Source: Candidatus Bathyarchaeota archaeon
Lineage (GTDB): Archaea; Thermoproteota; Bathyarchaeia; 40CM-2-53-6
Direction of reading: 5' to 3'
NCBI GenBank assembly: GCA_963706285.1
Contig: CAVPLU010000009.1
Span: 64,001 to 128,000, forward strand
DNA: 64,000 nt
Both the position numbers and the translations under genes were made by a program. Below, one piece after another: positions 15,971-31,406 of this stretch. Numbering within the stretch: position 1 is the stretch's first letter; the number at the start of each line of letters is the position of its first letter. The notes beneath the pieces are model-generated. The model was not told where the DNA came from, did no database searches, and worked only from the letters and a program-made list of their open reading frames with translations.

Positions 15971-17611
15971 TCACATCATGCCCATTCCGGGAGGCATACC
16001 TCCCCCGGGCGGTCCGCCAGCAGGTCCCTTTTCTCCCTTAGACGAAACTACGTCGTCGATACGGAGAATCATGCATGCTACTTCCGTTGATGACTTGATG
16101 GCTTGCTGTTTGACGCGAAGAGGCTCAATCACTTTCTCTTTGAGCATGTCAGCCACCTTTCCATCGTAGACGCTGACACCAAACCACTTGTTTCCGCTGT
16201 TCTGGTGCTTCATTCTTAGTTCAATCATGATGTCGATAGGGTCGAGTCCTGCATTCTGTGCGAGCGTCAATGGTATTGATTCGACAGCTTCTGCAAAGGA
16301 TTGAACGCCCAACTGCTCTCTTCCTCCAACCTTGACTGCAAAGTCACGAAGTTGCTTTGCCAGTTCCGCCTCAATAGAGCCTCCACCAGCAACGATCTTG
16401 CCGTCCTCAACGACGTTTCGGACTACGCAAAGGGCGTCGTGAATTGATCGTTCAGCTTCCTCGATAACGTGTTCGGAGCCGCCTCGTATCATAATGGTCA
16501 CCGCCTTCGGGTCTTTGCATTCCCTAATGTAGAGTAGCTTGTCGTCACCGATCTTGACCTCCTCTATCAGCTTGGCTTCGCCTAAGGATTCAGCGCCTAG
16601 ATCCTTCAGGGTCGCCACGATTTTCCCACCGGTTGCTCTTCCAAGTTTTTCCATGTCGCCGCTGCTAAGGTTCTTCGCGGCGAGGATTCCTCGTCTTGCA
16701 AGATAATGCAGAACAATGTCGTCAATACCTTTCTCGGATAACACTACGTTGGCCTTTGAATCGGCGATCTTCTCCACCATCTGCCTCATCGTTTTTTCCT
16801 CTTCATCTAGGAACGTTTTCATCTGGTCTGGGCTTTCGATAGTGATCTTTGCTTCGATCTCTGTCTTCTCAATCTCGAGCTTGGTATTGAGAAGGGCGAT
16901 TCTGGCTTTCTCTACTCGTTTCGGCATCCCTGGGTGAGCGATCTCCTTGTCGATGACGATACCTTTGATCAACTCTGTTTGATCTATTCCTTCGCCGCGT
17001 TTTTTCAACACTTTTATCCTATCGATATCTGCTTTGATCTTTCCATTCGAGTTCTCCATTACTTGTGTAACAGCTGAGGTGGCGAGTTGGGCAAGGTAGT
17101 CTTTGCTGGTTGCTACTGTCTTGGTTCCCATTGATGTGCTTGCTATCTGGCGTAGGGTTTTGATATCGGTCGAGTCTACCGTGATAGCTAGGGAGTCCAG
17201 GATCTGGAGAGCTTCAGCTGAACCTTTCTTGTAACCGTCTATGATGATCGTCGGGTGAACGTCCTGATCCATTAGTTCTTGAGCTTTCGAGAGAAGCTCC
17301 CCCGCCAGTATGACTGCCGTGGTCGTGCCATCGCCGACCTCGTTGTCTTGGCTTTTTGCAACTTCCACGAGCATCTTCGCCGCGGGATGTTGAACGTCGA
17401 ATTCCTTCATGATCGTGGCGCCGTCGCTAGTTATGACGACGTCCCCCATGCCGCTCACAAGCATCTTGTCCATTCCAAGCGGACCTAGTGTCGTTCGTAT
17501 AGTCTCAGTAACAATCTTGGCCGCCATGATGTTGCTTCGTTGAGCATCGTGACCCTTGCTTTCTGTTGATCCTTCCCGAAGAATGTAGATCGGCATTGTT
17601 CCTTCAGACAA
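15971..17611 (-). CDS. Thermosome (group II chaperonin) subunit
   Basis: [33 protein letters not shown]-rich tail; likely start TTG 17611 or ATG 17596; alpha/beta not assignable. Confidence 0.97.
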
Positions 17612-17695
17612 CTTAATCCAAACCGTTAACAGGATGGGCTGCCCGCTTGATAAACCAAGCACCCGTAACGGGTCTTAGCAAGGAATGTGGCCGTG

Positions 17696-17803
17696 ATGGG
17701 TTGGTACTGTCCAAAGTGCCGTTCGGTGTTCGTTGAGTTTCAATCCACTTGTCCATACTGCCTTGTACGGCTGAGAAAGTCGAAGTACGAGGACCGGATC
17801 TAG
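17696..17803 (+). CDS. 35-aa zinc-ribbon microprotein MGWYCPKCRSVFVEFQSTCPYCLVRLRKSKYEDRI
   Basis: Read manually; CPKC...CPYC; divergent from thermosome. Confidence 0.7.
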   Translation: MGWYCPKCRSVFVEFQSTCPYCLVRLRKSKYEDRI

Positions 17804-17853
17804 CCGAAACAGAACAAAGCCATCCCTACCGCCTCAGGATGGTGGTTTGAGCC

Positions 17854-18003
17854 TCATCGGTGGGTCGTGAATGATTTTCGACATTGTTCTGAGCAGAAAA
17901 CGTACCCTTTGGATAGGATGGGGTTCTCGATTTTCTTGCCGCAATTCGAACAGTATTTCCCATGAGTTCCGTTCGCTACCTCATTCAACGATGCGCACAC
18001 CAT
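17854..18003 (-). CDS. 49-aa TRASH-like metal-binding microprotein
   Basis: Read manually: ...KYCSNCGKKIENPILSKGYVFCSEQCRKSF (CxxC...FCSxxC). Confidence 0.65.
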   Translation of the reverse strand: MVCASLNEVANGTHGKYCSNCGKKIENPILSKGYVFCSEQCRKSFTTHR

Positions 18004-18441
18004 TTACTTGCTTTCGTTGTCGCTCATATGCCTTGCGAGCAAGACCGCTGAAGATTCAGATTATAAGCGCGGGCACGGAATCGTTGATCGAGAAGATTTG
18101 TCCGCACGCAAACGCGACCGCAAGTGGAAGGAAGAGTGGACTGGCCTAAGAACGGGAGAGTCGAAGCCACGAACCCGCGGAGTCAAGAGAAGAGAGAAGG
18201 GAGCAAAGGGAAAGTTCCGACTCCGAGGGATGGGAAAAGATGCAGGCGCCCGAAGCCGATGGAGGCCAAGACAGAACAGACAAAACAGAACGAGTCACCA
18301 AAGGTAAGAGACGTAACACTGAATAGAGCTGATAGATGTCTGGGAGTTTTGAGGTCTGACGTGGCTCTACTTCGCAATTCGTTCGAACCTATTGCCACGG
18401 GACTAGTTAGAAAACCAACATAGTTGGAGGTGAGAACAGGT

Positions 18442-18627
18442 ATGAGTCAAAGAGAGTACGAAGTTGAGATGACCAACGATCGCAAGAAGCTAATAGAGTT
18501 GCTTCAGCAGGGATTCAACTACATCTGCGATTACGAGGGCATGAAAGTACTCCGGAAGGAGAGCGGGAAATCCCGCAGGCGGAGAGAATTCATTAAGAGC
18601 TATTCCAGCCATCAACGAGAGACATAA
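18442..18627 (+). CDS. Small protein resembling the C-terminal tail of archaeal tyrosine integrases
   Basis: GGAGGTG SD; LIELLQQGFNYICDYEGMKVLRK. Confidence 0.5.
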   Translation: MSQREYEVEMTNDRKKLIELLQQGFNYICDYEGMKVLRKESGKSRRRREFIKSYSSHQRET

Positions 18628-18865
18628 TGAAGCGGAGAGCAGGCGAATGCGTCCGGGCGAGTCATTTCTTCTTGCTCCAGTAATCAAGATGACCTCGACA
18701 AATGCTAGGGAGAGTTCTCGCACTACGCGTGAATCAACGTGCAAAATTCCTCGGTTCGCATTTCTAGCCTACGCTTCGGCAACACGAGACATCTCAACAC
18801 TGATAGAGACCAAAGGCCTTATGACCTTTGAAGATAACGAGCTAGAGAGCATAAGAGGAAGCCAA

Positions 18866-19000
18866 TTGCCCAGACGCAGTGGTCGGCAAAGAAGAAAGCG
18901 TGTTCACTCACGAAGAAACCCTACACGAAGAGGAAAGCGCACACGCATGGCGGAAAGAGACCGGAAGCGGAAAGCCGAGACAGGACCTACGAGGCCCTAG
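18866..19000 (+). CDS. 44-aa Arg/Lys-rich peptide (M)PRRSGRQRRKRVHSRRNPTRRGKRTRMAERDRKRKAETGPTRP
   Basis: TTG start after AGAGGA; very basic composition. Confidence 0.5.
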   Translation: MPRRSGRQRRKRVHSRRNPTRRGKRTRMAERDRKRKAETGPTRP

Positions 19001-19063
19001 CGGGGCCTACCGGGAAATATTATATACATCTTATGCCGGAAAAAATATTGAGGTCGTTAGACA

Positions 19064-19213
19064 TTGGATATACTGTGGGTTATTGTTATAGTTCTTGTAA
19101 TTCTCTGGCTCTTGGGCCTACTCAGCGGAATAGGGACTCTAGTTCACATATTGCTGGTCATCGTTCTGATTGTGATTGTGGTCAGGCTTCTTCAAGGGAG
19201 AAAAATATTCTAG
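19064..19213 (+). CDS. lmo0937-family-like small membrane protein (49 aa)
   Basis: Read manually: (M)DILWVIVIVLVILWLLGLLSGIGTLVHILLVIVLIVIVVRLLQGRKIF; GAGGT SD; upstream TTATATA. Confidence 0.8.
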   Translation: MDILWVIVIVLVILWLLGLLSGIGTLVHILLVIVLIVIVVRLLQGRKIF

Positions 19214-19236
19214 TTCGAATTTGAACAGGATGAAGA

Positions 19237-19488
19237 GTGGATTTTATGATATCGTCTTTGCTTGTTGCAAGCATTGTTCGGGTGCTTAACGAAATAGGTG
19301 TGAATCAGACTGCAGGTTCCATGGTTAATTCAGCCTATACGTGGCTGGTGACCCTGAGTCCGATCATGCTGATAATCTTGGGCGTAATCGTATTCATCGC
19401 TGGGAGGTTCGCGAAATGGATCGGCATCATAATGGTCATCGTCGGCGTCATCTTCCTAGTCCTACCGTACATACTAGGCGTGATCTAG
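19237..19488 (+). CDS. Small membrane protein
   Basis: Two to three hydrophobic helices in the C-terminal half. Confidence 0.7.
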   Translation: MDFMISSLLVASIVRVLNEIGVNQTAGSMVNSAYTWLVTLSPIMLIILGVIVFIAGRFAKWIGIIMVIVGVIFLVLPYILGVI

Positions 19489-19506
19489 CCAGAGTCTGTG
19501 TAACCT

Positions 19507-19725
19507 ATGAGTCATTCGAGTAATTACTGCGATCAGTGTGGCGCTAACCTGAAGCCACAGTTCCAGTTCCGTGAGAACCAGCCCATGCTGTTCTACTGCC
19601 TTCAGTGCAAAGCCCCTAGAACCGTCGTGGCCACAGAGCATAAGCACCGAACCGACTATGCAATGGCTGATTGCCCCGAATGCGGCTCAAAAATGAGCAC
19701 GTACGAAGCGAACCCTTCAGGATAG
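19507..19725 (+). CDS. Zinc-ribbon microprotein (three CxxC)
   Basis: CDQCG, CLQC, CPECG. Confidence 0.75.
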   Translation: MSHSSNYCDQCGANLKPQFQFRENQPMLFYCLQCKAPRTVVATEHKHRTDYAMADCPECGSKMSTYEANPSG

Positions 19726-19768
19726 AAGAGAGAATAACTGAAAAAGAGATTCAAGGGGTGATTTCAAG

Positions 19769-19888
19769 ATGGCGAAGAAAAGCAGAGGCGGCAGAATGAC
19801 TTCAGCTAAGAAGCGTGCGGCCAAGAGGGCTGGTGGGCGCGGTCCTGTAAGAAAGCGTTCGGCCGGTCGAAAGATTATGAGGACTTGA
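19769..19888 (+). CDS. 39-aa basic peptide MAKKSRGGRMTSAKKRAAKRAGGRGPVRKRSAGRKIMRT
   Basis: Read manually; GGGGTGA SD upstream; no acidic residues. Confidence 0.75.
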   Translation: MAKKSRGGRMTSAKKRAAKRAGGRGPVRKRSAGRKIMRT

Positions 19889-20010
19889 GACCTCATCGCA
19901 GTGAAACAGGCCCAATCATACGGCCCATGATGTGCTGCTCTCTCGTTAGTCATTCCGCGGGACTTCACATATGACCTGAAACGCCCCCAAACGCCACAGA
20001 ATGAGTCGCG

Positions 20011-20241
20011 TTGGTAGGCAGCCTTATCTTCCACCACTACCACCACTACTATCACCACTATTACTACTGGCGAAATGAAATGACCTTGATGAAATGCACC
20101 AACTGCGGCTACGTTCAAAACTACGGCGGCCGCCGCAACCTGACCTACACGTGCACCAACTGCAAACGCTCAGACATCGACCAACACGAAGCCGCCAACG
20201 CCTACCAGAAAGTGAAGCGGAAGGAGGCGAAAAAAGAATGA
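20011..20241 (+). CDS. Zinc-ribbon microprotein, possibly with His/Tyr-rich leader
   Basis: CTNCG...CTNC; in-frame FHHYHHYYHHYYYW upstream; true start could be ATG at 20080/20089; stop overlaps the next start (ATGA). Confidence 0.7.
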   Translation: MVGSLIFHHYHHYYHHYYYWRNEMTLMKCTNCGYVQNYGGRRNLTYTCTNCKRSDIDQHEAANAYQKVKRKEAKKE

Positions 20242-20627
20242 CAATGTCGTATTATCAGCCTCCTACCCAGTACCAGTATTATCAGCCACCGACTCAGTAC
20301 TATCAACCTCCTGCTCAGTACCAGTATTATCAGCCTCCTACCCAGTCCTATCAGCCACCGACTCAGTACTATCAACCTCCTGCTCAGTACCAGTATTATC
20401 AGCCTCCTACCCAGTCCTATCAGCCGCCCGCCGAGATGTACTCCTACCAGCCACCGACCCAGTCCTACTATCAGCCTCCTACCCAATACTACAACTATCA
20501 GCCTCCTACCCAATACTACAACTATCAGCCTCCTACCCAATACTATCAGCCACCGAGCCAGATGTACTCCTATCAGCCTGCTAACCAGATGTACTCGTAT
20601 CAACCGCAAGGATTCAGAGTCCAGTGA
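20238..20627 (+). CDS. 129-aa Tyr/Gln/Pro tandem-repeat protein (15 YQPP[TAS]Q-type units)
   Basis: AAGGAGG SD; ATG 20238; all repeat units are multiples of 3 nt with synonymous variation. Confidence 0.85.
   Translation: MTMSYYQPPTQYQYYQPPTQYYQPPAQYQYYQPPTQSYQPPTQYYQPPAQYQYYQPPTQSYQPPAEMYSYQPPTQSYYQPPTQYYNYQPPTQYYNYQPPTQYYQPPSQMYSYQPANQMYSYQPQGFRVQ
20250..20606 (+). repeat. Coding tandem repeats (21/24/27-nt units, exact 69-nt duplication starting at 20280 and 20349)
   Basis: tatcagcctcctacccag/caa units seen directly. Confidence 0.95.
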
Positions 20628-20629
20628 CA

Positions 20630-20681
20630 GCTCTCTAGGCGTACTTCTCACGCCTTTCAAGAGAGCCCGAATCTTCTTTTT
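20630..20681 (+). terminator. Hairpin plus T-tract after the repeat gene
   Basis: GCTCTC-AGGCGT...ACGCCT-GAGAGC followed by TCTTCTTTTT. Confidence 0.6.
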
Positions 20682-21103
20682 CCCAAAACTTAGCAACCTA
20701 CCATGGCAACTCATGCTCTACTCTTGTCGCAATACATGTGAAGGGGGCTCCCGGAACACGGAGAAACAAGCCGAAATTGGCAACGGTGCATGGAACCATT
20801 CGTTTTCAGCCGCTTTTTGCACGCCCCTCAAGAAACCGAATAGGATTACGGGATAGTAAGAGGAAAGCAGCCCTTGCATTAGGGGTCGAGATTCGATATC
20901 AGCCTTATAGGCACACGAAGTCCAGACAAGCGACGAGAAAGCTTCTGTCAGCTGTTTAGGTTCCGCTTCGTCCCGAAGGATGACTGCCACAGCTTGCGTC
21001 AATGCACGAATCGCAATCGCCGCACCATTTCACTGGCAAATGTGAATAGCCTTATTCCCGCATATTCAACCCCAGAAGCCCTGATCTAATTGGGCGTATT
21101 GGA

Positions 21104-22250
21104 TTGATAGCTGGAATTGAGTCACGCAGATTGAAGAACCGTTGGACAGTAGGGTTCTTCAGGCCTTCTGTTGTCGTGCTAGCCGCATACATCATCTACG
21201 TGGAGTTTGTACTGTCTCTCCATCAGTACGACCCAACGGTATTCATTCAAATAGGCACCATATTCGCTGATCGGGCAAGTTCCGTCGCGAGATTGGTACA
21301 CGACATTGGTTTTGGGCCTCCTTTTTGGAAAGCCGGATTTGACGGCCAGTTCTACTACTACATTGCGCTGGATCCGGTAAATGCTTGGGAGTTGCTTGAT
21401 ACCACCGCAAGATATCAGCGCATTTTGTACCCGATAATTGTTCGTTCGCTCTCCTTCGGATATTTGCCTTCTATACCGTTTCTGATGATCATCGTGAATT
21501 TGGCATCCATTTTTGCTGGAACCGAGTTTCTTGCCCGCTTGTTGAAGTGGTTCCACCTTAACTCGTGGTACTCGCTCGGCTATGGTTTCCACATTGGGCA
21601 GCTAGTGTGTCTGAGAAAAGATCTGCCTGAGCCCCTTATGTACGCGTTTGTGATAGCGGCCATCTACTTACGCAGAGGCCAAGGGAAGTTCTCGCCTTGC
21701 GGGAATAATGTTCCTTTTGGCGCTCTTCACGAAGGAGCCTGCCATCCTATTCATAGTAGCCTATGTCTTCGGACTTCTACTGAGTTCAAGAAGGAGGTCT
21801 CTGCGTGACGCTGCGCTTTTGGTTTCCATATCTGTTTTGCCATATGCAACCTACCAGCTCATGCTACTCTATCGTTTCGGTCAAGTTGCATTCTTAGGTG
21901 TGGGAAACCTGCAGACTTTGAGTATGATTCCATTCTATGGCGTTTTCCAAGTACCTCGGACTCCATTCGAACTCGCCTCAATTGCAGTTTCCATAGTGAT
22001 ACCAGTCACGTTGTCGCTTGCTATCTTCTTCCGCAGTGTTGTCAGAGGAAACGTCGAGCCTTTGCTTGTAGCACTATTACTGAACGCTCTCTTTCTGGCG
22101 TTCCTGCCGCCCCTGTCCTATGTCGATGTATTTACCTACGGCAGGGTCTCGCTGGGTCTTGCGACTGCGTGGATAGCACACGCAGGTTTCTCACAGAATA
22201 GGCGAATGCTTGACTTACTCGATCTTGTGGGCTATCCCCCTCCAATTTAA
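21104..22250 (+). CDS. Polytopic membrane protein, AZOBR_p60025-like / GT-C-like surface glycopolymer protein (frameshift near 21680)
   Basis: GFDGQFYYYIALDP, RYQRILYP, DLPEPL, LFTKE motifs; many TM helices. Confidence 0.75.
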
Positions 22251-22286
22251 CCACTTGCCTGAATGACTGAAGATCATGCGAACTAG

Positions 22287-22420
22287 CTAACGAAAGCGTT
22301 CACTGCGAAGATTTCTCTTCGCCGAATGGGTGTCCCTGACGATGTTGGGAAAGTCGCCGCGTTAGTAGGCTCTTCTGAGTCGGAATTTATGGCAGGAGAA
22401 CCGGTGATCCTTGATGATGT
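22287..22420 (+). pseudogene. C-terminal remnant of an SDR oxidoreductase
   Basis: KISLRRMGVPDDVGKVAALVGSSESEFMAGEPVILDD resembles the SDR tail; in-frame stop just upstream. Confidence 0.6.
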
Positions 22421-22486
22421 TGCCTCGATCATCTTCTGTGAAAGCGGTGGTGTCGCCTTTTGGTCTTCAGCTTTCATCTAGTTTAC

Positions 22487-22804
22487 TTAGATGAATCTTA
22501 ACAGTAAGCCGACTATGCCGCCTAGGAGTACGAGTAGGCCACCTAGGCCGCCTGCGATCACTCCTACGACTATGAGAATAATGTCCCAAGTGAGGTCGGT
22601 AGCACGTCTGGCGCCCATGATGGCGATAATGCCGAGGATTATTTCGATGATCCCCCAGAAGGATCCGCCGATGGGTCCGACTATCGATGGCACGAACATC
22701 AAAAAGGCCATTCCCAAGAAGCTTAGGATACCCTGGATTACTAGGATTATTCCGCCAATCAATGCGAGAATGTACGCAAGCTGTCCCAAGGAGCCTGTAC
22801 GCAT
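22487..22804 (-). CDS. Small Gly/Ile-rich membrane protein
   Basis: About four hydrophobic segments. Confidence 0.75.
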   Translation of the reverse strand: MRTGSLGQLAYILALIGGIILVIQGILSFLGMAFLMFVPSIVGPIGGSFWGIIEIILGIIAIMGARRATDLTWDIILIVVGVIAGGLGGLLVLLGGIVGLLLRFI

Positions 22805-22843
22805 CTGCAATCAACTCAAGAGGTTGCATAGTTGAATTGCGTT

Positions 22844-22863
22844 TATAAGGTTATGTGCTTATA
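22844..22863. promoter_or_regulatory. TATA-overlapping inverted repeat TATAAG-N8-CTTATA upstream of RHH gene 1
   Basis: Seen directly; similar site at 23434-23453. Confidence 0.6.
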
Positions 22864-22896
22864 TCGTTAAGACTGGAATATGGCGTCTGTTAGGGA

Positions 22897-23133
22897 ATGT
22901 TAACTTTGGGTAAGATGTACATAGTTCTTTCTGACGAAACGGAACGTAGACTCCGACTGGCTGTTGTCACAATTTTCGGCGGAAAGAAGGGCGATTTAAG
23001 CAGTGCCATCGAGGTGGCTATCAAAGAATGGCTGGATAAACATGCGACAGAAGCCGATATTACCAAATGGGTGCGAGGCCAGTTGCACGAAAGAGGTCCA
23101 GGGAGACCCCGTGCTTCGAAACGATCCCTCTGA
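22897..23133 (+). CDS. Ribbon-helix-helix (CopG-like) regulator 1
   Basis: MYIVLSDETERRLR...GGKKGDLSSAIEVAIKEWL. Confidence 0.8.
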   Translation: MLTLGKMYIVLSDETERRLRLAVVTIFGGKKGDLSSAIEVAIKEWLDKHATEADITKWVRGQLHERGPGRPRASKRSL

Positions 23134-23433
23134 ATCATATGCGCCCAATATCGAGCACTTTCACACTCTGGCATACCCTAATTCATTCTATCACTTGAAG
23201 GCACAAATCCCCTCTTCTCCAGGCATTTCTGGACCATAGTATCTCTGCATGAGTATTGCGGGAATCGCCTGCAAGCGCGTAGAAGCTTAAGTTCTAACTA
23301 CGAATCAACCAAAGAACGAATACAATGAGCATGATCCCAAAAAGACCGATTTGTACACGCATTCTAGACCTGCCTCCAAGGCCGACTGAAACTCAGTCGT
23401 GGTTATACCACTAAATCGTTATAACGTTAAATA

Positions 23434-23453
23434 TATAAGTTTATATGCTTCTA
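23434..23453. promoter_or_regulatory. TATAAG-N8-CTTCTA upstream of RHH gene 2
   Basis: tataagtttatatgcttcta versus tataaggttatgtgcttata. Confidence 0.6.
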
Positions 23454-23482
23454 TGCGCATATAGGGTGTGGCCAGATAATCT

Positions 23483-23647
23483 TTGGGAAGAATCTACGTA
23501 GTGCTCTCCGATGATGTCGAGCGCCGACTGCGATTATCAATTGTGAGGAGGCTCGGAGGTAAGAAAGGAGACCTCAGTTGCGCGATCGAGGAAGCTGTCA
23601 ACGACTGGCTAGGTAAGGCTTGGTTGAAGCCTGGAGATCGGATGTAA
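23483..23647 (+). CDS. Ribbon-helix-helix regulator 2 (paralog, 54 aa, absent from the ORF track)
   Basis: Read manually: (M)GRIYVVLSDDVERRLRLSIVRRLGGKKGDLSCAIEEAVNDWLGKAWLKPGDRM. Confidence 0.85.
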   Translation: MGRIYVVLSDDVERRLRLSIVRRLGGKKGDLSCAIEEAVNDWLGKAWLKPGDRM

Positions 23648-23668
23648 GAAGGGGAGGTGGAAAGAAAA

Positions 23669-23835
23669 ATGGGTCATGTAACTATTGGAGGTACTTACTA
23701 CAATCACTTATCGGACTATCTGTTCCCTACGTCGTCGGTTATCCATCATGCGACAATCCAACGTACGGTTACAGCTATGGTTCGTATAGTTATCCATACA
23801 CCTACGGTTCGTACGGATATCCGTACTATTGGTGA
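23669..23835 (+). CDS. ~55-aa Tyr/Gly/Ser-rich peptide (one probable homopolymer deletion near 23726)
   Basis: GGAGGTG SD; MGHVTIGGTYYNHLSDYLF then shifted PYVVGYPSCDNPTYGYSYGSYSYPYTYGSYGYPYYW*. Confidence 0.7.
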
Positions 23836-23860
23836 TTAGAGCATCGTAACTAAACCGACT

Positions 23861-23897
23861 AGGTCGAGCACGATAAATGCTCGACCTCTTTTTTCTC
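23861..23897 (+). terminator. Perfect 10-bp hairpin plus T-tract
   Basis: AGGTCGAGCA-cgataaa-TGCTCGACCT-CTTTTTTCTC. Confidence 0.75.
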
Positions 23898-24152
23898 ATT
23901 CAATTGCAAGCGTTGAAAACACAGGCTGTCAGCTCAAAAGCAGCATAAGAGTCATAGATATCGCATCAAAAACGATACGGACCCAATAGGCTATGGGGAA
24001 GTGGAGGTTGTGACTCCAAGGAACAAAGGCGGATGGAGAAGGCGGAGACCGCTCAGGTGACTTCGGCATGGATAGTATTATAGGTGTGAGTAAGCTTACA
24101 TATGCTTAAGCTGGCATAGCCGATGATTCGAATAGGGAATAGGGCGCGTATA

Positions 24153-24731
24153 ATGAAACGAATCACAGCCGTTCTTCTCTTGGTCCTAGGTTTGGCAGCG
24201 TTTTCCCTGATGGCCACGCCATCAAATGCATCGATGGCCATGATCCGGGGTACTGTGTACTGGTATGACATGTACGGAAATCTCCGCCCACTTCCGTGGG
24301 CGCAAGTGGTCGCTGAAGGCAGTTCGGGAGAGCCCGCCACCGCTTCTACGACTACTGACGGTACCTACATGATGTGGGTGGCACCAGGGTCGTACAACTT
24401 GACCGTCTCCGTTGACCCTGCGTATACGCCCGAAAGCAAGACGGTCACGGTGACTGAAGGAGGCATGGCGTCGGCTGACTTCCAGCTTCAACCCTCTGGC
24501 AAGCCTATCCCAGAGTATCCATCCATGGCGCAGCCGGTAATGCTGTTGATCGCTGCCCTCGCCACGGCAGTCCTGATCCGCCGACGCAATCATGTCCGCT
24601 CGCAAGCTGACGAACATTCGCTTGGTTCTCCACAGCCCCGCGCAATCGTGGGCCGTGACTGGCCCGTGGATCCGACACTGCTACTGCAAACTGCACAACG
24701 TGGGAATACGATCTGCAGTCCGTTACAATGA
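24153..24731 (+). CDS. Secreted carboxypeptidase-regulatory-like (Ig-like) domain protein with PEF-CTERM-like sorting signal
   Basis: Signal peptide; IRGTV...TTTDGTY..VAPGSYNLTVS; PIPEYP plus TM plus RRR; tail after RRR may be read-through. Confidence 0.75.
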   Translation: MKRITAVLLLVLGLAAFSLMATPSNASMAMIRGTVYWYDMYGNLRPLPWAQVVAEGSSGEPATASTTTDGTYMMWVAPGSYNLTVSVDPAYTPESKTVTVTEGGMASADFQLQPSGKPIPEYPSMAQPVMLLIAALATAVLIRRRNHVRSQADEHSLGSPQPRAIVGRDWPVDPTLLLQTAQRGNTICSPLQ

Positions 24732-24743
24732 GGTTGAGAGAAC

Positions 24744-26087
24744 TTGGCTCGACGTTCTGTGGTTATTTTGACCGAACTCGCGCTGATCTTCATGATACTG
24801 CTGGTCGTCTATCCTAACGGAGCTGTCGCATCCGGAGCCCCTGCTAGTGAGCCGGCTGCCCTGAGCCTATCCGGTAGCGTTTCTGCAGGTTCTGCGATGC
24901 AGTATCCCTACCACTACTATTACAATTATCCTTACTACCCATACAACTACACGTACTACTACTCGTACTACTCTTACCCTTACTACTACCCCTACGCCTA
25001 CGACTCCTCATACTGCTACACGTACTACTATGACTACTACGGTTACAACTACGACTACTATCCCTACTTCTATTATGGGGCATACGGCTACCCCTACAAT
25101 TATCCGCAGTCCTGCTACCCGACGACAACAACCACCAGTACTCCCCCAGCAACCCCAACTTACGCACTTCAAGTGGCAACCAACCCCTCAAGTATCACTA
25201 GCGTGAGTGGAAACGGAACATACAATCAAGGAACCGCAGTGTCGTTCAGTGTTGCTTCGCTCATTATACCGAAGACCGCAAGCCAACGGTATGTCTTCAC
25301 AGGCTGGAGTGGAGACTTCTCAGGAAGTTCACCTAGCGGAACATTAACGATGACATCAGCAAAGAGCGTGGTCGCAAATTACCAGCTCCAGAACTACCTC
25401 AAGGTCTCCGTGGACCCTCAAGGAATCACAACCGCAGCTGGCGAAGGCTGGTACGTTCCGACTGACTCAGTCACCGCAGGTCCGGTCCCCTCATCCATCC
25501 CAGGAGGAGATGGAACTCGATACGTCTTCCAGCAATGGACGGTTGATAACGCTCCCGTCTCAGGAAACCCAGTGCAAGTCACTATGAGTAGCCCTCATGC
25601 AGTGGTTGCCCACTACAAGACGCAGTACATGCTCACAGTATTGTCCGACTATGGAATTGCTCAAGGAACAGGATGGTATGATGCGGGAACCTCGGCACCA
25701 TTCTCAGTTACAACACAGGTCGATGTGAGCTACGGCGTAAAGCAAGTCTTCGATAGATGGACAGGGGACACACAATCAACTTCCGCAGCCGCCGCAATCA
25801 CAATGGATTCGCCTCACACTGTCAGAGCCATTTGGAGAACGGACAGCACAGTCCTTTACACTACGATAGCGGTGGGCATCGCCGCAGCATTTGTGCTGGG
25901 CATAGGGCTGGCGATATTTGGGTTCATGAGAATGCGCGGAACGAAGTCTGCCCCAACAGCTCAGCCCACCACTCCGGTCACAACAGCTCAACCAGCTCCA
26001 GAAAAACTGAAGGCAACACCAACAAAGAAGAAAACTAAAGAAGTGTCAACAGGAACCGAGGGGAAAGCCCCCTCTTCTGAAGTCTAG
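24744..26087 (+). CDS. Surface protein: signal peptide, Tyr-rich domain, three InlB-B-repeat-like stalk domains, TM anchor
   Basis: YPYHYYYNYPYYPYNYTYYYSYY...; repeated RYVFxxWsGD / GxGWY motifs; C-terminal TM and Lys-rich tail. Confidence 0.85.
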   Translation: MARRSVVILTELALIFMILLVVYPNGAVASGAPASEPAALSLSGSVSAGSAMQYPYHYYYNYPYYPYNYTYYYSYYSYPYYYPYAYDSSYCYTYYYDYYGYNYDYYPYFYYGAYGYPYNYPQSCYPTTTTTSTPPATPTYALQVATNPSSITSVSGNGTYNQGTAVSFSVASLIIPKTASQRYVFTGWSGDFSGSSPSGTLTMTSAKSVVANYQLQNYLKVSVDPQGITTAAGEGWYVPTDSVTAGPVPSSIPGGDGTRYVFQQWTVDNAPVSGNPVQVTMSSPHAVVAHYKTQYMLTVLSDYGIAQGTGWYDAGTSAPFSVTTQVDVSYGVKQVFDRWTGDTQSTSAAAAITMDSPHTVRAIWRTDSTVLYTTIAVGIAAAFVLGIGLAIFGFMRMRGTKSAPTAQPTTPVTTAQPAPEKLKATPTKKKTKEVSTGTEGKAPSSEV

Positions 26088-26160
26088 ACAAATCTGACCC
26101 GTAGGTTACCAGGCATCAGCTTGGACTATGATGCCTCGGTGTCTGACCAAGTCTCGGGGA

Positions 26161-26545
26161 TTACTTGCTGGCTTCTATCCAGCCTCGTTGACCCGTCGTC
26201 TTCACGTAGAGGTCGTATGCAAAGAATGCGCTAATGGCAAATTGGATAATGCCTGCAAAGAACCAAGCAAACGTCCAAATGAGAACTTCAACTACGATAA
26301 CAATTATGAACAATAGCACCGGTGGGACAGTCACAACCTTCTGATATCCCCAGTACCAGTAACCGATACCTGGAAAGAAGAAGTTCAAGATCGCTGCAAT
26401 CACAGCATTCTTTTCCCCACTCGGAGGTGGAACATTAAGAGGCTGCACAGACGAAGGTTGAGCAGACTTACCCAACTGGGCTCCCACAACTCACGCAAAA
26501 CGTTGCATTATCCTCATTCTTGCCGCCACATTTAGGACAGAACAT
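26161..26545 (-). CDS. Zinc-ribbon plus membrane (TM2-like) protein (frameshift near 26485)
   Basis: MFCPKCGGKNEDNATFCVSCG then KNAVIAAILNFFFPGIGYWYWG. Confidence 0.75.
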
Positions 26546-26816
26546 AAGACATTCAATATCATAAAGGTCGAATACTGATATTTAAGACCAAACTCTGAAA
26601 ACAGCATAGCCTAAGGTAGACGTGAAACTAATTCGCAGAGTATTTCTTCTTGAATGTCTATGTGGGCACGGTAATCCCATCAACGTTCGCAGGCGTAGCT
26701 CTTGCCAATCACTTGCAGTCGAAAGCCATCAAATCAGTGCCAGACGATATTCGTGAGAACAAGAAGTCTGAACTGCATTTCTGCTCTGATGACGTGCGCT
26801 CCAAAGGTCGCGGGCA

Positions 26817-27341
26817 CTAAGTAACTGTGCTGGCGCGCAATCTGGACATGATCAAATCTGCGACCTTGTCCGGGTTCGGGACGTCGACCATTTCTGCATT
26901 CAAGTTCTCACCAGGCTGCGTCCCGCGAACCAAGCCGTAACCGCTCTTTGTTACAGGAGCAACATTCCCATACCTCGCCAATCGACCCACAAGACTCTGC
27001 GAAACCTGCACGTCACTAATAGACGAGAACGGAATACGCCGAACACTACGCCCCAACAACTGCCTCTGTACAACAACATCAGAATCAGTAATCAGATATG
27101 TGAAAGCGTTCCTACGAATAGCACCAACCAACATACCCAAGATCCCCAAGCCAACCAATCCCAACGCCGCATACCTGAGGAGAGAATCAGCGGATGAAAG
27201 CGGAAACTCAAAAATGAAGCTCACACCGAAAACCACGATACCCAACAATACAACGAGAAAACCCTTCCAAGCGAACGGCACAAGACTCGGCTTGATTCTG
27301 ATGCCTTGTTTCGCTTGAGCCGACAAAACTTTTCGTTTCAA
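26817..27341 (-). CDS. Bacterial PH-domain (bPH_2) membrane protein
   Basis: Two TM helices then YLITD...IPFSSISDVQVSQSLVGRL..YGNV. Confidence 0.8.
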   Translation of the reverse strand: MKRKVLSAQAKQGIRIKPSLVPFAWKGFLVVLLGIVVFGVSFIFEFPLSSADSLLRYAALGLVGLGILGMLVGAIRRNAFTYLITDSDVVVQRQLLGRSVRRIPFSSISDVQVSQSLVGRLARYGNVAPVTKSGYGLVRGTQPGENLNAEMVDVPNPDKVADLIMSRLRASTVT

Positions 27342-27619
27342 AGAATCATGAAATTGCTCGGATAAGGTTTTCTATTCTCAATTGAGTTGAAGTTCAGCCG
27401 GGTCCCACCTACGAGAACAGGACCACAGCTACGACACGATTTCCGAGACGTACATTCCGTTCGGAGTCTTCAATTCGTAGTGGACTGTTTTCGCAAGTAC
27501 CACGTCAGAGCACGTCAAAAATCCGACTGCCACGTTCCCCACTCAAAACCGTTCTTACTATATCTCTGACTCTCTTGGTGCACACAACACTCTTGGCATT
27601 GTGTGGCGAAAGAGTCTCT

Positions 27620-28051
27620 TCAGACGAAACCAGTCGCCAATATAGCAAGCGCAGCCAGTGCTCCGATAACCATGCCTACCGCCACTTCAGTTGGCGTGTG
27701 GCCTAGCGAATAATGCACGGGCGGCGTTCTGACATGCGCCAGACGTATGATGCTGTTTATTGTCTTTCCCTCCTCGCCAGCTGTGCGACGCACGCCCAAC
27801 GAATCCCGTATAACAACGACCGCAAGAACGACGGCCACGACGAATATCGAGTTCCGCCACCCTTCTGTCCAAAGGATAGAGAGGCAAAGCGCAGTGACAG
27901 TTGCCGAATGGGCGCTCGGCATACCGCCCGTCACCACAATGTCCTCAAGTGACAGACGTTGGCGATGACTCAATCTGATGAGTGACAGTTTCAGACCCTG
28001 CGCAACCGTCAGCGCGAGCACAACTGAACCAAACACCCCAGGAACGTCCAT
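27620..28051 (-). CDS. Divergent PAP2 family protein (DUF212)
   Basis: AQGLK, TGGMPSAHSATV, DSLGVRR, GHTPTEV. Confidence 0.9.
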   Translation of the reverse strand: MDVPGVFGSVVLALTVAQGLKLSLIRLSHRQRLSLEDIVVTGGMPSAHSATVTALCLSILWTEGWRNSIFVVAVVLAVVVIRDSLGVRRTAGEEGKTINSIIRLAHVRTPPVHYSLGHTPTEVAVGMVIGALAALAILATGFV

Positions 28052-28374
28052 GGCTTGTCGAAGAGGTTTTAGAGCAAAAGGGTTTGTAAGTCATTCGTCC
28101 CAAAGCCTGTCGTGTCGTCGCTCAGGCTCTTCTTTGCTTGCGGACCACAAGACGCGCCCTTCGGAAATCAATCATTGATTGGTTGAGAACGCGGAGGGAA
28201 AGAAAGTCTCAACGACTACTCTTTCTTTCTCTCTGTCTTTCTTCTCTCAGATTTCCACGTTGTTGCTTTCTCTATCTGGCGTCGCCCCTGTGTTGCTTTT
28301 CTGCCCTTCTGCGTCTCTCTTCGTAGTTTTTTCAATCTCCTTGTTCTCATTGACATGGCAGAACCTCGTCTCCC

Positions 28375-28674
28375 TTACTTGAGGTCCCGGCGCCTCTGCC
28401 AAGAGTCGACCTGGTCTCTTGTGGGCTCATCTTCGTCGTTGTTTCCATTCTCTTCGTTGTCTCCGGCGTCTTGATCGGGTTCATGTTCTCCTTTCTTACG
28501 TCCGTGTATCTCGTATCCGCACCGAGAGCATTTGTAGTAGTTCTCGTAGTGGCTGAATTGCTTGTCTGTCTTTTCTCCAGCCTTGAAGTAGGGTCGGGCA
28601 AAAGCGAGCATGAGACCTTCGCCGCATTTGGGACAAGGAATGGGACCTGTCATCTCTATCTTGTGTTCGGACAT
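28375..28674 (-). CDS. Zinc-ribbon protein with acidic tail
   Basis: CPKCG...CSRCG. Confidence 0.7.
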   Translation of the reverse strand: MSEHKIEMTGPIPCPKCGEGLMLAFARPYFKAGEKTDKQFSHYENYYKCSRCGYEIHGRKKGEHEPDQDAGDNEENGNNDEDEPTRDQVDSWQRRRDLK

Positions 28675-28962
28675 GACCCTACACTCTACGCGATAGTTCT
28701 AGTTCAGGACCTCGATATAATACGGTACGATTAGGCACGGTGCGCATCAGGTTCCAAGTGATACTTCCCGAGTCTGCGACAGAGCCACATGATCACAAGC
28801 CTCGTCTTCGTTCTCTTTTCGTGTATGTGGCATCAAGGGAACCCAACGACGTTCATTGTGCCGCCAATCGCTGTCAATCAGGGGTTCAGGGACTTCTCGC
28901 TTGCTCCGCAAAGCGTATTCATATAGGCTTCCTTCATAAGGTGCACCTCAAGTATCACTCAG

Positions 28963-29532
28963 GTGCACCCTCTGGCTAAACACGAATCGTACATCCATAT
29001 AGAGAACGTCGTCGCGTCAGCCACACTGAACCAGAAGATTGACCTCAACTCGATTGTTCGGCTTTTTCCTGGCGTCGAATATAGGCCTGAGCAGTTCCCC
29101 GGACTCGTATACCGGCTGAAGAAGCCGAAGACCGCGACGCTGATTTTCACCTCTGGGAAGATGGTTTGTACCGGAGCAAAGTCCGAGAGGCAATCAAGGA
29201 AGGCGGTCATGAAAGTTGTCGACGAACTCAAGAGGAACGGGATGATCATCCTTGGAAAGCCGGAAATCCAGATCCAGAACATTGTAGCCTCAGCGGGACT
29301 GGGAGGCCACATCGACTTAGAAAAGACAACGTACTCTCTGAAGAGGACGATGTACGAGCCCGAACAGTTCCCAGGTCTAATCTACAGAATGGACGACCCG
29401 AAAGTAGTCATACTGATCTTTGCGAGCGGAAAGCTAGTGTGTACAGGCGCCAAGAAAGAGGCGGAAGTACCTAGAGCAATCGCAAAATTGCAGGAAACTC
29501 TGGAAGAGAAGGGCCTCATAACCTACGAGTAG
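28963..29532 (+). CDS. tbp: TATA-binding protein
   Basis: Two repeats NVVAS/NIVAS, YxPEQFPGL, IFxSGKxVCTGAK. Confidence 0.98.
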   Translation: MHPLAKHESYIHIENVVASATLNQKIDLNSIVRLFPGVEYRPEQFPGLVYRLKKPKTATLIFTSGKMVCTGAKSERQSRKAVMKVVDELKRNGMIILGKPEIQIQNIVASAGLGGHIDLEKTTYSLKRTMYEPEQFPGLIYRMDDPKVVILIFASGKLVCTGAKKEAEVPRAIAKLQETLEEKGLITYE

Positions 29533-29651
29533 TCCCGAGCTCGGTCGGGCGAATTAACACTGCTGAGCTTGCCAGACATATGTAATGCTTCACGTTTGTC
29601 GCAAAAAAAGAACTGGGGGGCTCTGTTGTCCTGGGCGGTTTGCTGTTGTGT

Positions 29652-31102: not shown

Positions 31103-31406
31103 TCCAAGAAACGCCTGTCATAGATAGCGCCGAGTAGCGTTAGTAAGACAATCGGTAGAGCTCGAATAGTCTCTTAATCAAGCGGCCTAGCTTTCTTCGT
31201 TCTACTCAGATGACCCTGCTCGGCTTAGCTGCGGATTCGTTCTAGATCTGATATCTTACTCTCAAAAGTCCGGATGTCTTTGGCCACGAGGCCATCCTGT
31301 AGTCCGAAGCTCATCCACTACTTTCTTTGTGGGTCCGTCGCTTGTCCGACTCCGACAAAACGATCTCGATTTACCTCGCCCCAGGCCCATAGGGCTTGGT
31401 GAAAAG

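Follow-up and report, generated by a model that had tools for sequence, protein, structure and literature searches.

Here, we report that 8.9 kb of archaeal DNA (positions 17687 to 26545), with thermosome and TBP genes on either side, reads as a mosaic accessory island of small genes, the core of which would be a travelling gene set with a proposed role in stress protection; we hold this reading with middling confidence. The genes are real, are syntenic in relatives and show low divergence there compared with core genes.

The window is the whole stretch of DNA analysed (64,000 nucleotides), and its source archaeon is a wetland Bathyarchaeon. Comparisons drew on the closest relative (G001; 95% nucleotide identity), a sister genus (g4; eight genomes, eight loci) and a genome of another family (G030).

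Gene content of the island

The initial annotation had described a dense small-gene locus, and its observations mostly held, apart from an Arg-rich open reading frame (ORF), a sorting signal and the terminators overall. The island carries 17 supportable genes, 13 of them encoding fewer than 110 amino acids (Table 1), and most genes of the stretch are conserved or under purifying selection. The Shine-Dalgarno (SD) motifs noted earlier are clear for four genes; the proposed hairpin/T-tract terminators stood for one strong site after the Tyr/Gly-rich peptide gene, with terminator-like sites overall at chance (9 observed, 8.9 expected). Three genes (Tyr/Gly peptide, GT-C fold and Zn-ribbon-TM) contain 1-nucleotide frameshifts; either decay of this copy of the island or indel errors in the assembly may lie behind them.

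Table 1. Features of the island and its edges (window positions)
Feature	Position	Strand	Remark
zr38, 38-aa zinc-ribbon protein	17687..17803	+	adjoins thermosome gene
zr49, 49-aa zinc-ribbon or treble-clef-like protein	17854..18003	-	
Conserved purine-rich element, probably non-coding	18052..18320	.	outside travelling set
p67, small ORF	18442..18627	+	GGAGGTGA SD
Arg-rich ORF, not supported as gene	18647..19000	+	
11-bp direct repeat AAGAGGAAAGC	18928..18938, again 20858-20868	.	bounds segment 1, absent in G001
lmo0937-family (DUF5670) two-TM microprotein	19064..19213	+	
tm83, small membrane protein	19237..19488	+	in relatives, first gene of operon facing RHH genes
zr72, double zinc-ribbon protein	19507..19725	+	restricted to this lineage
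basic39, 39 aa, 41% Lys/Arg	19769..19888	+	GGGGTGAT SD
HYzr76, zinc-ribbon protein, N-terminal His/Tyr tract	20011..20241	+	putative start
YQPP-repeat protein, 129 aa	20238..20627	+	AAGGAGG SD
Predicted GT-C-fold membrane enzyme gene	21104..22250	+	1-nt frameshift in this assembly
10-bp direct repeat AGGCTCTTCT	22367..22376, again 28124-28133	.	bounds segment 2, absent in G001
tm107, Gly-rich four-TM small membrane protein	22487..22810	-	
Shared divergent promoter region	22811..22914	.	AT-rich TATA-like boxes
rhh78, RHH protein	22897..23133	+	basic C-terminal tail
rhh54, RHH protein	23483..23647	+	RHH_6 28.7 bits, cut-off 27
Tyr/Gly-rich peptide gene	23669..23835	+	one base missing here (frameshift); GGGGAGGTGG SD
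Hairpin (10-bp stem) and T-tract	23861..23897	+	3' of Tyr/Gly peptide gene
Surface protein: signal peptide, CarboxypepD_reg domain, TM anchor, 45-aa tail	24123..24731	+	
Surface protein: signal peptide, Tyr/Trp/Cys-rich module, Thr linker, InlB-type B repeats, TM anchor, basic tail	24744..26087	+	
Zinc-ribbon and TM-domain gene, 127 aa if intact	26161..26545	-	one extra G here
bPH_2 membrane protein, assigned to travelling set	26817..27341	-	just beyond span of initial annotation

Family matches bore out the zinc-ribbon peptides. On the left, zr38 (dN/dS, 0.08 to 0.13 in five genus comparisons; 0.29 versus G001) lies beside the thermosome gene in loci L002, L011, L021 and L027, and zr49 has weak Pfam matches and orthologs in three g4 genomes (59 to 60% amino acid identity, Cys pattern kept; dN/dS, 0.4 to 0.9 within the genus and 2.6 versus G001). 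The purine-rich element is 85 to 91% identical in four genus genomes, in differing contexts. Its variable sites (17/25/28 by codon position) lack 3-base periodicity and it contains one 1-nucleotide indel, as would suit a non-coding element; no Rfam match was found at an E value of ≤1. p67 has a single ortholog, in G001 (9 synonymous versus 2 non-synonymous changes), and no match in family searches. Two Arg/Lys-rich peptides had been proposed. The one at 19769, basic39, is real; the one at 18866, in ORF 18647-19000, was rejected as a gene (dN/dS, 1.79 versus G001, with two stops there, and 0.89 versus G008). The G001 breakpoint falls inside this ORF.

The likeness of one microprotein to lmo0937 is secure by NF033488 (42 bits; cut-off, 30) and PF18919 (33.2 bits; cut-off, 23.5), with dN/dS of 0.09 to 0.11. 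tm83 (dN/dS, 0.17 to 0.53) has orthologs in seven of the eight g4 loci, in G008 and G030 and on contig C16 of the same genome, and tm107 in seven of eight g4 loci and G030 (71 to 86% amino acid identity); the atlas look-alikes of tm107 are archaeal hypothetical clusters (0.93 to 0.94). zr72 has matches in 13 of 105 genomes of the order (E < 1e-30 in 11) and in three other 50% clusters (E ≤ 1e-10, full-length in one), with dN/dS of 0.12 versus G008 and 0.67 versus G030. By sequence, basic39 (dN/dS, 0.12 to 0.15) groups as a member of an unannotated family that spans both domains, Bacteria and Archaea (about 78% identity); the family comprises 369 clusters, every one labeled hypothetical and none with a Pfam match, and occurs in 312 stretches in species genomes of both domains. 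Of its 39 columns, 18 are invariant. The bPH_2 gene matches PF03703 (50.1 bits; cut-off, 22).

Two paralogous RHH regulators had been called; they are 62% identical, and whereas rhh54 exceeds the RHH_6 cut-off of 27 bits, rhh78 falls under it (22.7 bits). rhh78 has orthologs in five g4 genomes (80 to 96% amino acid identity) and a dN/dS of 0.06 versus its C16 copy. Members of the rhh54 family occur in 40 of 105 genomes from the order, as many as 13 in a single genome; RHH_6-type genes thus form a large paralog family, and their presence is not specific to the travelling set. The block GCTTATAAGGTTATATATTTATATCG upstream of rhh78 is conserved across seven copies, and the divergent promoter would be controlled by the RHH proteins.

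The Tyr-rich products are likewise genuine. The YGYSYGSY peptide gene (167 nucleotides in the initial annotation) is real, although a frameshift lies within it here: six of nine copies examined are intact (53 to 96 aa), namely, that on C16 (55 to 59 aa) and those of five g4 genomes (53 to 96 aa), always directly 3' of rhh54. The His/Tyr tract at 20029-20070 falls inside HYzr76, with an in-frame length difference in G055, and the stop of HYzr76 overlaps the start of the YQPP gene (ATGA). The latter indeed has eight copies of the YQPPTQ repeat. In G055, both genes have orthologs in the same pairing (HYzr76, 83% amino acid identity and dS of 0.16; YQPP protein, 81%), and YQPP paralogs occur on C8 and C12 of the same genome.

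Synteny and proposed exchange of the travelling set

The core set would comprise two RHH genes followed by the Tyr/Gly-rich peptide gene and, across the shared AT-rich promoter region, tm83, tm107, the lmo0937-family gene, zr72 and basic39; the bPH membrane protein and the Zn-ribbon/YQPP-repeat pair would be members of the same set. The initial annotation had asked whether the genes are syntenic in relatives. The core sub-set is, being kept within 10 kb in the eight sister-genus genomes, in G030 and in a second own copy, so a linked small-gene module exists. DUF5670, zr72 and basic39 keep that order in all eight g4 loci, with tm83 and tm107 within 10 kb in seven, rhh54 in seven, a Tyr/Gly peptide match 3' of rhh54 in six (intact ORF in five) and bPH beside the set in six; the thermosome gene adjoins it in only three. 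The set also occurs on G030 contigs C5 and C4, and the second own copy, on C16, reads peptide, rhh54, rhh78 facing tm83 and then CsbD and dodecin.

Travelling-set genes have dS of 0.1 to 0.9 (values against g4: zr72, 0.13 to 0.46; bPH, 0.30 to 0.61; tm107, 0.30 to 0.62; rhh78, 0.31 to 0.60), whereas core genes are 68 to 77% identical to g4 in nucleotides and the thermosome gene is saturated; G030 is 87 to 93% identical over set genes but about 65% over the thermosome gene. From this much lower divergence we infer lateral exchange of the set between genera. The DUF5670 gene of the window is saturated versus g4, as diverged as core genes, and the island itself is thus mosaic. G001 is without 18939-20857 and 22378-28123, each flanked by a 10- to 11-bp repeat.

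It is unlikely that there is no functional unit here and that a recombination hot spot has gathered unrelated small accessory genes, g4 synteny reflecting recent shared ancestry of transferred DNA. Order and orientation do vary in nearly every genome, the window copy is a mosaic with a DUF5670 gene of different lineage, unrelated cassettes are interleaved, and kin genomes are non-independent samples. Membership is nevertheless kept despite the shuffling (eight g4 genomes, G030, G008 and the second own copy), and the second own copy has other downstream genes, yet of the same kind (CsbD). The basic39 profile occurs in 12 of 105 genomes of the order, 11 of which also have zr72; basic39 directly follows DUF5670 in three distant archaeal loci as well (L098, L100 and L107), and conservation extends to the RHH/tm83 promoter block.

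RHH and zinc-ribbon microproteins are typical of archaeal viruses, and a decaying remnant of an integrated provirus or plasmid, its RHH, zinc-ribbon and membrane genes having no cellular role, would account for that resemblance, for divergence implying exchange between genera and families, for the patchy distribution (12 of 105 genomes), for insertion-like segments with short direct repeats at their ends and for the three frameshifted genes. We judge it decidedly improbable. Neither the window region nor the g4 and G030 loci that were read showed an integrase, capsid, replication or packaging gene, and tRNA detection gave none for the window. Scans of viral contigs returned no relative of rhh54 or tm107 and one 17-residue match to zr72; PHROGs matches were only to three unknown-function families and, for bPH, "membrane-flanked domain." The g4 sets lie inside long chromosomal contigs (up to 1.4 Mb).

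Interleaved cassettes

In this genome, the travelling set would have been split, rearranged and interleaved with a GT-C-fold enzyme gene, a surface-protein unit of two genes (24123-26087) and a Zn-ribbon-TM gene; as cassettes, neither the enzyme gene nor the surface-protein pair is related to the core set. Positions 21104-22250 are one frameshift-split gene of 381 codons, intact in contigs of runs X2 and X3, which have one base fewer at 21668. Its homologs (413 to 531 aa) are without Pfam matches, and the model of one of them (pLDDT, 78.9; pTM, 0.84) gave Z scores of 19.9 to Pmt4 and 19.7 to AglB, which agrees with the GT-C-like call and predicts a GT-C-fold membrane enzyme. ORFs 26468-26545 and 26161-26487 are likewise a single frameshift-split gene (Zn_Ribbon_1, 36.2 bits), for which the C3 copy of the same genome is one ORF (98% nucleotide identity).

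The surface-protein genes are paired in five genus genomes, on other contigs. The first matches PF13620 (38.2 bits; cut-off, 32.3; dN/dS, 0.26 to 0.44), and its supposed sorting signal proved to be a TM anchor with a conserved tail of 45 aa behind it, and no CTERM model scored above cut-off. The second matches PF18998 (49.5 bits; cut-off, 23.6), with dN/dS of 0.12 to 0.19 in the repeats and 0.27 to 0.39 at the N terminus; its reported Tyr-rich N-terminal domain is a W/Y/C-rich module in all nine homologs read (eight genus orthologs and one own paralog).

A cell coat versus stress protection

The earlier interpretation survives in part, as a linked small-gene core; the whole 9 kb as one module and a cross-linked coat do not. 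Both set-bearing segments are absent in G001, and relatives have the GT-C gene, the Zn-ribbon-TM gene and the surface-protein pair at other sites. For the Tyr/Gly peptide and YQPP protein, no signal peptide or TM segment was predicted, and neither has a linked gene for a cross-linking enzyme, which leaves the coat reading without support. Of the peroxidase and laccase genes suggested for a genome check, the only peroxidase was a KatG-type match (724-aa open frame, two peroxidase domains) and Cu-oxidase gave a single match, a fragment interrupted by a stop; the genome search for tyrosinase, the control of which was silent, found none. A single co-regulated envelope-armouring or resting-stage programme, its Tyr-rich proteins cross-linked into the wall and its basic peptides compacting DNA, is therefore very improbable, even with real and conserved Tyr-rich products, a conserved Lys/Arg-rich basic39, a syntenic core, a 447-aa protein whose aromatic module is predicted outside the cell and a KatG-type gene, given that the last is on another contig, that the surface-protein pair and GT-C gene are linked to the core set in none of eight g4 loci (other contigs in genus relatives) and that basic39 sits beside stress-type, not chromatin, genes in many bacterial and archaeal phyla.

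For the travelling set, we instead propose small proteins that would protect against stress (stationary phase, osmotic or cold) and would act in the membrane and cytoplasm, not in a cell coat. CsbD exceeds its cut-off both in the C16 copy and in G054, and the G030 copy contains DUF1508/YegP. Among 67 basic39 loci of other phyla, the two nearest ORFs per side included ice-binding-like proteins (10), BON (5) and CsbD, DUF883_C, DUF1328, DUF3185, MscL and MscS (1 each), the majority being without a family or of unrelated families. Family content and neighbors elsewhere (CsbD, dodecin, YegP, BON, mechanosensitive channels and ice-binding-like proteins) favor a stress module of small proteins; this association suggests a stress theme, and by family content a general stress set would fit better than differentiation, though a dormancy-like protective role may apply. 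The counterpart of the two-TM microprotein in Listeria, lmo0937, is listed as sigma-B dependent (PMC2813243, PMC7690807).

Gene content and moving pieces of the locus

The locus lies between a thermosome gene on one side and genes for bPH_2, DUF212, TBP, and Alba on the other, and is therefore chromosomal and archaeal. Short contigs from four wetland/peat metagenome runs cover parts of the stretch (in run X1, 54 of 204 pieces at ≥99% identity); no RNA run was found to cover it. Candidate open reading frames (ORFs) were each compared by dN/dS with genus relatives, own-genome paralogs, and later the sister genus, g4. Purifying selection was clear for the zinc-ribbon protein zr38, the DUF5670 gene, basic39, both ribbon-helix-helix (RHH) genes, and the B-repeat part of the 447-aa protein, and moderate for tm83, tm107, zr72, and the CarboxypepD_reg protein. 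Families above curated cut-offs were DUF5670/NF033488, RHH_6 (rhh54), CarboxypepD_reg, Flg_new_2 (InlB-type B repeat), Zn_Ribbon_1, and bPH_2.

Features of the locus, with selection estimates and synonymous divergence from the sister genus g4 (G001, closest relative; G008, genus relative; G030, genome of another family)
Feature	Position (strand)	dN/dS	dS versus g4
Thermosome gene (Cpn60_TCP1, 618 bits)	15971-17662 (-)		saturated
Purine-rich element (~265 nt)	18052-18320		
ORF enclosing the Arg-rich peptide at 18866, rejected as a gene	18647-19000	1.79 (G001, two stops); 0.89 (G008)	
DUF5670 (lmo0937 family)	19064-19213	0.09-0.11	saturated
basic39 (Lys/Arg-rich, 39 aa)	19769-19888	0.12-0.15 (three comparisons)	0.45-0.96; 1.20 (divergent G063 copy)
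GT-C-fold gene, two frames	21104-22250 (21104-21808, 21708-22250)		
rhh78	22897-23133	0.06	0.31-0.60
rhh54	23483-23647	0.20	0.32-0.94
Tyr/Gly peptide	23669-23835		
66-nt block	23962-24027		
CarboxypepD_reg protein (202 aa)	24123-24731	0.26-0.44	
447-aa surface protein	24744-26087	0.12-0.19 (B-repeat part)	
Zn-ribbon-membrane gene, two frames	26161-26545 (26161-26487, 26468-26545)		
99-aa ORF	28375-28674 (-)		
tRNA-like piece (47 nt)	31406-31452 (-), up to ~31545		
zr38		0.08-0.13 (five comparisons)	
zr72		0.12 (G008); 0.67 (G030)	0.13-0.46
tm83		0.17-0.53	0.43-0.86
tm107		0.65 (G030)	0.30-0.62
HYzr76 (Zn-ribbon of the Zn-ribbon/YQPP pair)			0.16
bPH			0.30-0.61

The initial annotation had read the region as a microprotein-dense locus running a single coat or dormancy program. 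The density is largely real and the locus unusual; the single program did not stand, and the coat is very unlikely. Its lmo0937-like call was borne out: the DUF5670 gene scored 42 bits with NF033488 (cut-off, 30) and 33.2 bits with PF18919 (cut-off, 23.5), and its 49-aa product (two hydrophobic runs; C terminus RLLQGRKIF) and 12 similar orthologs have the expected size (~45 to 50 aa) and basic C terminus. So was its call of two paralogous RHH genes, with rhh54 at 28.7 bits against RHH_6 (PF16762; cut-off, 27) and rhh78, below that cut-off at 22.7 bits, 62 to 63% identical to rhh54 over 45 aa. The clear SD motifs claimed for several genes were found strong before basic39, the Tyr/Gly peptide, the YQPP gene, and p67, and the RHH-peptide unit is closed by a 10-bp hairpin and T-tract. 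The Arg-rich peptide at 18866 fell with its ORF. A microprotein-dense locus in a metagenome-assembled genome can thus hold reading frames of three kinds: those of real, conserved genes, those split by frameshifts, and those that stand open by chance where the DNA is purine rich.

Three genes are split by single bases. The two overlapping frames of the GT-C-fold gene are one gene: contigs of runs X2 and X3 are one base shorter at 21668, and deleting one base there gives a 381-codon ORF (homologs, 413 to 531 aa). The Zn-ribbon and membrane frames form a single 127-aa gene in a 98% identical copy on contig C3 of the source genome, relative to which the window has one extra G. The Tyr/Gly peptide gene is one base short of the intact copy on contig C16, which explains its initially annotated 167-nt span. 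Each of the three may be a true pseudogene or the product of an error in assembly.

No Pfam match was found for either frame of the GT-C gene, its homolog P0123, or 14 homologs, and none placed it in a described GT-C sequence family. An AlphaFold model was built for P0123 (43% identity across two-frame gene's N-terminal frame, covering 67% of it; 11-sequence alignment; pLDDT, 78.9; pTM, 0.84). The top 29 Foldseek rows were all GT-C-fold membrane proteins, nearly all glycosyltransferases, with weak E values (0.02 or worse). The VIA structural aligner scored Pmt4 at Z = 19.9 over 345 residues (RMSD, 5.3) and archaeal AglB at Z = 19.7, both higher than the ~13 attainable by chance for helical bundles. 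The predicted GT-C membrane fold holds for the product, in agreement with its first description as a GT-C-like enzyme. GYDGQFYY, invariant in 11 homologs, is a candidate for the segment that bears the conserved acidic residue of the first outer loop in GT-C enzymes.

The purine-rich element is 85 to 91% identical in four genus genomes. As a gene it was rejected: its variable sites by codon position (17/25/28) have no periodicity, it carries a 1-nt indel, and its two open frames, open only because T is scarce, are less conserved as amino acids than as nucleotides. Rfam had no match for it, and it is probably a conserved non-coding element. Its neighborhoods differ (Nramp adjoins in genus relative G002 and a 99-aa Zn-finger ORF in G009), and a TTATAA box lies at its start. 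The conserved 99-aa ORF, a weak zinc-finger match, moves with rearrangements: its neighbor is TBP in the window and G001 and the purine-rich element in G009, and in G008 it comes straight after zr38. The 47-nt piece resembles a tRNA end (T-arm and acceptor stem, then a T-tract) and is repeated at 83 to 98% identity in many places of five genomes (G008, G030, G054, G055, and G059); ARAGORN and Rfam made no call there, and it may belong to an intron-bearing or split tRNA gene. In G054 and G030 the Tyr/Gly peptide is followed by a conserved gene for a 141-aa membrane protein, and the 66-nt block is 89 to 95% identical to the sequence just upstream of that gene. The gene is absent from the window, where the surface-protein pair stands instead. 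Rfam had no match across the whole window at the gathering threshold, nor at E ≤ 1 in 17600-21100 or 31200-31700.

Synteny and probable exchange of the travelling set

In the closest relative, G001 (95% nucleotide identity), one contig aligns with 16559-18938 and resumes at 20858-22057; another aligns with 21917-22377 and resumes at 28124-29535. At both breakpoints a 10- to 11-bp sequence that flanks the extra window DNA (AAGAGGAAAGC and AGGCTCTTCT) is present only once in G001. G008 carries the thermosome gene and zr38, followed by rearranged pieces. A search of the order for zr72 found 13 of 105 genomes, of which 11 matched strongly: the source genome, G008, 8 of the 23 g4 genomes, and G030. 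A basic39 profile found 12 of the 105, including those 11.

The 20-kb stretches around the eight g4 zr72 matches were compared. DUF5670, zr72, and basic39 occur in that order in all eight, tm83 and tm107 in seven, rhh54 in seven, bPH in six, and rhh78 in five; zr49 and the thermosome gene are each present in three. A match to the Tyr/Gly peptide lies directly 3′ of rhh54 at six loci (intact in five, frameshifted in G062), and one further locus stops at a contig edge. The Zn-ribbon/YQPP pair recurs once, in G055 (83% and 81% amino acid identity). Gene order and orientation otherwise vary among loci, with the RHH genes always facing tm83 across a conserved divergent block, GCTTATAAGGTTATATATTTATATCG, a putative RHH operator. 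Two copies of a similar set stand at contig starts in G030. The source genome has a second copy on C16, in which the peptide, rhh54, and rhh78 face tm83, followed by CsbD (46.6 bits; cut-off, 40) and dodecin genes. Synteny in relatives, on which the initial annotation had staked its locus, was thus found for a core subset at eight g4 loci; in genus relatives the surface-protein pair lies on other contigs. A mere patchwork of independent cassettes, as the locus might be read, was revised in view of the conserved set in the sister genus.

Divergence differs between the set and its surroundings. Core genes of the window are 68 to 77% identical to g4 in nucleotides (PEP synthase, 71 to 72%; TBP, 73 to 77%; PCNA, 68%; L10e, 68 to 70%) and 79 to 87% identical to G008. 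The thermosome gene is 65 to 67% identical to g4 and has a dS of 0.54 within the genus; the low dS of the set genes against g4 is given in the table. G030 is 87 to 93% identical to the window over set genes and ~65% over the thermosome gene. Within the source genus, g1, strong RHH matches were found only in the source genome, and zr72 with basic39 only there and in G008. These sequence comparisons suggest that the set was exchanged recently between genera. DUF5670, saturated against g4 and 75% identical in nucleotides to G030, makes the island itself a mosaic. Bin contamination is an unlikely cause, since the set sits within long g4 contigs (up to 1.4 Mb) and g1-type genes lie on both its flanks in the source genome.

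A provirus or plasmid is a less likely reading that the exchange signature of the set would allow; integrase, replication, and capsid genes were not seen in the window region or in the g4 and G030 loci read, and ARAGORN found no tRNA in the window that attachment repeats could have used. Scans of viral contigs were empty for rhh54 and tm107, and with zr72 they gave a single match of 17 residues; PADLOC had no match among 18 proteins, and PHROGs gave only families of unknown function and one bPH match. On the best reading, the locus is a rearranging island, and within it lies a set of stress-type microproteins that is associated with RHH genes and shared by lateral exchange. Its synteny and divergence are observed; a stress function would follow by association.

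Surface proteins, Tyr-rich peptides, and basic39

The CarboxypepD_reg gene and the 447-aa gene are a conserved pair in five genus genomes, each time on other contigs. The nine homologs that were read for the 447-aa protein all agree in arrangement: a signal peptide is followed by a module rich in Trp, Tyr, and Cys (core W.YCYPWNYSWCYPYYW), B repeats, a transmembrane (TM) anchor, and a basic tail. The module is expanded in the window copy, with 43 Tyr within the first 160 residues. The protein is a membrane-anchored surface protein outside the travelling set and the only surface-anchored Tyr-rich product. Its partner, initially called a sorting-signal protein, ends in a TM segment, RRRN, and 45 further residues conserved in five orthologs; no CTERM model (PGF-/PEF-CTERM type tested) exceeded its cut-off (best, JDVT-CTERM at 13.6 bits; cut-off, 27), and the call was dropped. 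The sole archaeosortase-like match in the genome (G000:C4:461482-462558; 26.7 bits; cut-off, 25.7) is not linked to the locus. Its neighbor there is a protein with B repeats, a distant relative of the 447-aa surface protein.

The Tyr/Gly peptide has a conserved 25-residue N terminus, YGYPS/YGYGS repeats that vary in frame, and a C-terminal YGYPYYW. In the orthologs read, both this peptide and the YQPP protein lack signal peptides and TM segments. The Tyr/Gly peptide had one match in a large protein database, which says little about its range because gene callers probably seldom pick it up. On contig C3 the source genome (89% complete) holds a peroxidase gene of KatG type, and its Cu-oxidase match is a broken fragment, neither of them linked to the locus; a tyrosinase search of it gave no match, but the control was equally silent. 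With two small Tyr-rich proteins lacking export signals and the oxidative genes unlinked, the proposed cross-linked coat is very unlikely. Our literature search on tyrosine-rich low-complexity proteins in archaea found nothing related. A 113-aa YQPP paralog on contig C8 (L135:1928-3576), with a C-terminal GGYGGYRGYHGYGGYSGFGGFW tail, directly follows a radical SAM gene (PF04055, 44 bits), an enzyme that could modify such Tyr-rich peptides.

The protamine-like character ascribed to basic39 agrees with its composition (16 of 39 residues K or R), and an alignment of 16 members is invariant at 18 of 39 positions. The family comprises 369 clusters in a large protein database; most are exactly 39 aa long, and every one is labeled "hypothetical" and lacks a Pfam family. 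Species-representative genomes from many bacterial and archaeal phyla contain 312 matching stretches. Mean identity is 78.0% between archaeal and bacterial members and 77.4% within archaea; the hundreds of variants in both domains stand outside any family assignment. A known ribosomal or structural protein was rejected (PDB, none at E ≤ 10; NCBIfam and Pfam, none; Atlas matches, below 0.9). A search of the literature with the most conserved motif found nothing.

Neighbors were surveyed at 67 loci outside Bathyarchaeia (nearest two ORFs each side; 150 ORFs). Raw counts, with no control loci, were 10 for ice-binding-like, 5 for BON, and 3 for DUF3667 genes, and one locus each for CsbD, DUF883_C, DUF1328, DUF3185, MscL, and MscS; most remaining neighbors had no family or unrelated families. 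The neighbors named here are of stress and surface types rather than chromatin related, and a DNA-compacting role for basic39 is putative. DUF5670 lies within 7 kb of basic39 at 13 of 79 loci and directly upstream at three distant archaeal loci. The ice-binding-like neighbors (PF11999) are secreted, and several end ~50 nt before basic39. A membrane protein of ~111 aa with no Pfam family follows basic39 by ~130 nt at 14 loci (L054-L130) in other phyla; the four read are Thermoplasmata.

Possible function of the set and known systems

Bathyarchaeia, which are abundant in sediment and peat, are uncultured; their stress physiology is barely known, and annotation mostly misses their microproteins. 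The locus offers a defined and conserved set of small genes that was probably shared laterally and includes RHH genes of its own. CsbD genes occur in the C16 copy and at the G054 locus, and DUF1508/YegP and VIT1 genes at the G030 locus. Our literature search returned nothing on DUF5670 or on small proteins and stress in Bathyarchaeia. A more far-reaching reading, which we consider improbable, sees in the set a protective "matrix" kit that can be transferred between genomes and that RHH proteins control: a self-associating Tyr/Gly and YQPP gel or condensate, a polycation coating nucleic acid or ribosomes, and envelope-stabilizing membrane proteins would together let Bathyarchaeia in peat survive freezing, drying, or starvation in a dormant-like state. 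The polycation would then be an ancient or promiscuous stress factor common to Bacteria and Archaea.

Like the Bacillus spore-coat proteins CotC/CotU, the locus has small, very Tyr-rich products. Unlike them, these have no sequence relation to the coat proteins (no Pfam, NCBIfam, or PDB match), the two small ones lack export signals, the context is not of sporulation type, and no linked oxidase was found in the 89% complete genome. Self-associating Gly/Tyr-rich low-complexity domains are found in FUS-type [G/S]Y[G/S] regions and plant glycine-rich stress proteins. The Tyr/Gly peptide resembles these in its repeat number, which varies in frame between orthologs, and in its likely cytoplasmic place; unlike FUS-type domains, it is free-standing (53 to 96 aa), has a conserved 25-residue N terminus and no RNA-binding domain, and would self-associate only putatively.

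The locus shares with flexible genomic islands, which vary among strains and carry surface proteins and glycosyltransferases, its presence or absence at 95% genome identity, the surface-protein pair, the GT-C-fold enzyme, short breakpoint repeats, and pseudogene-like frameshifts. Its core differs in being conserved microproteins common to genera at low dS, and not a replaceable glycosylation cassette.

With bacterial general-stress small-protein genes (sigma-B type: CsbD, lmo0937, and YdbS/YdbT-type bPH) it shares three families above cut-offs in the set or its copies (lmo0937, CsbD, and bPH_2), very small membrane or hydrophilic products, and, in bacteria, basic39 neighbors that include BON, DUF883, DUF1328, and mechanosensitive channels. 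Two articles place lmo0937 among the sigma-B-dependent, stationary-phase genes of Listeria (PMC2813243, PMC7690807). Unlike sigma-B regulons, the set has no sigma factor, its host being an archaeon, and its induction by stress is putative; it has RHH genes at the promoter and the lineage-specific zr72, tm83, tm107, Tyr/Gly peptide, and YQPP protein.
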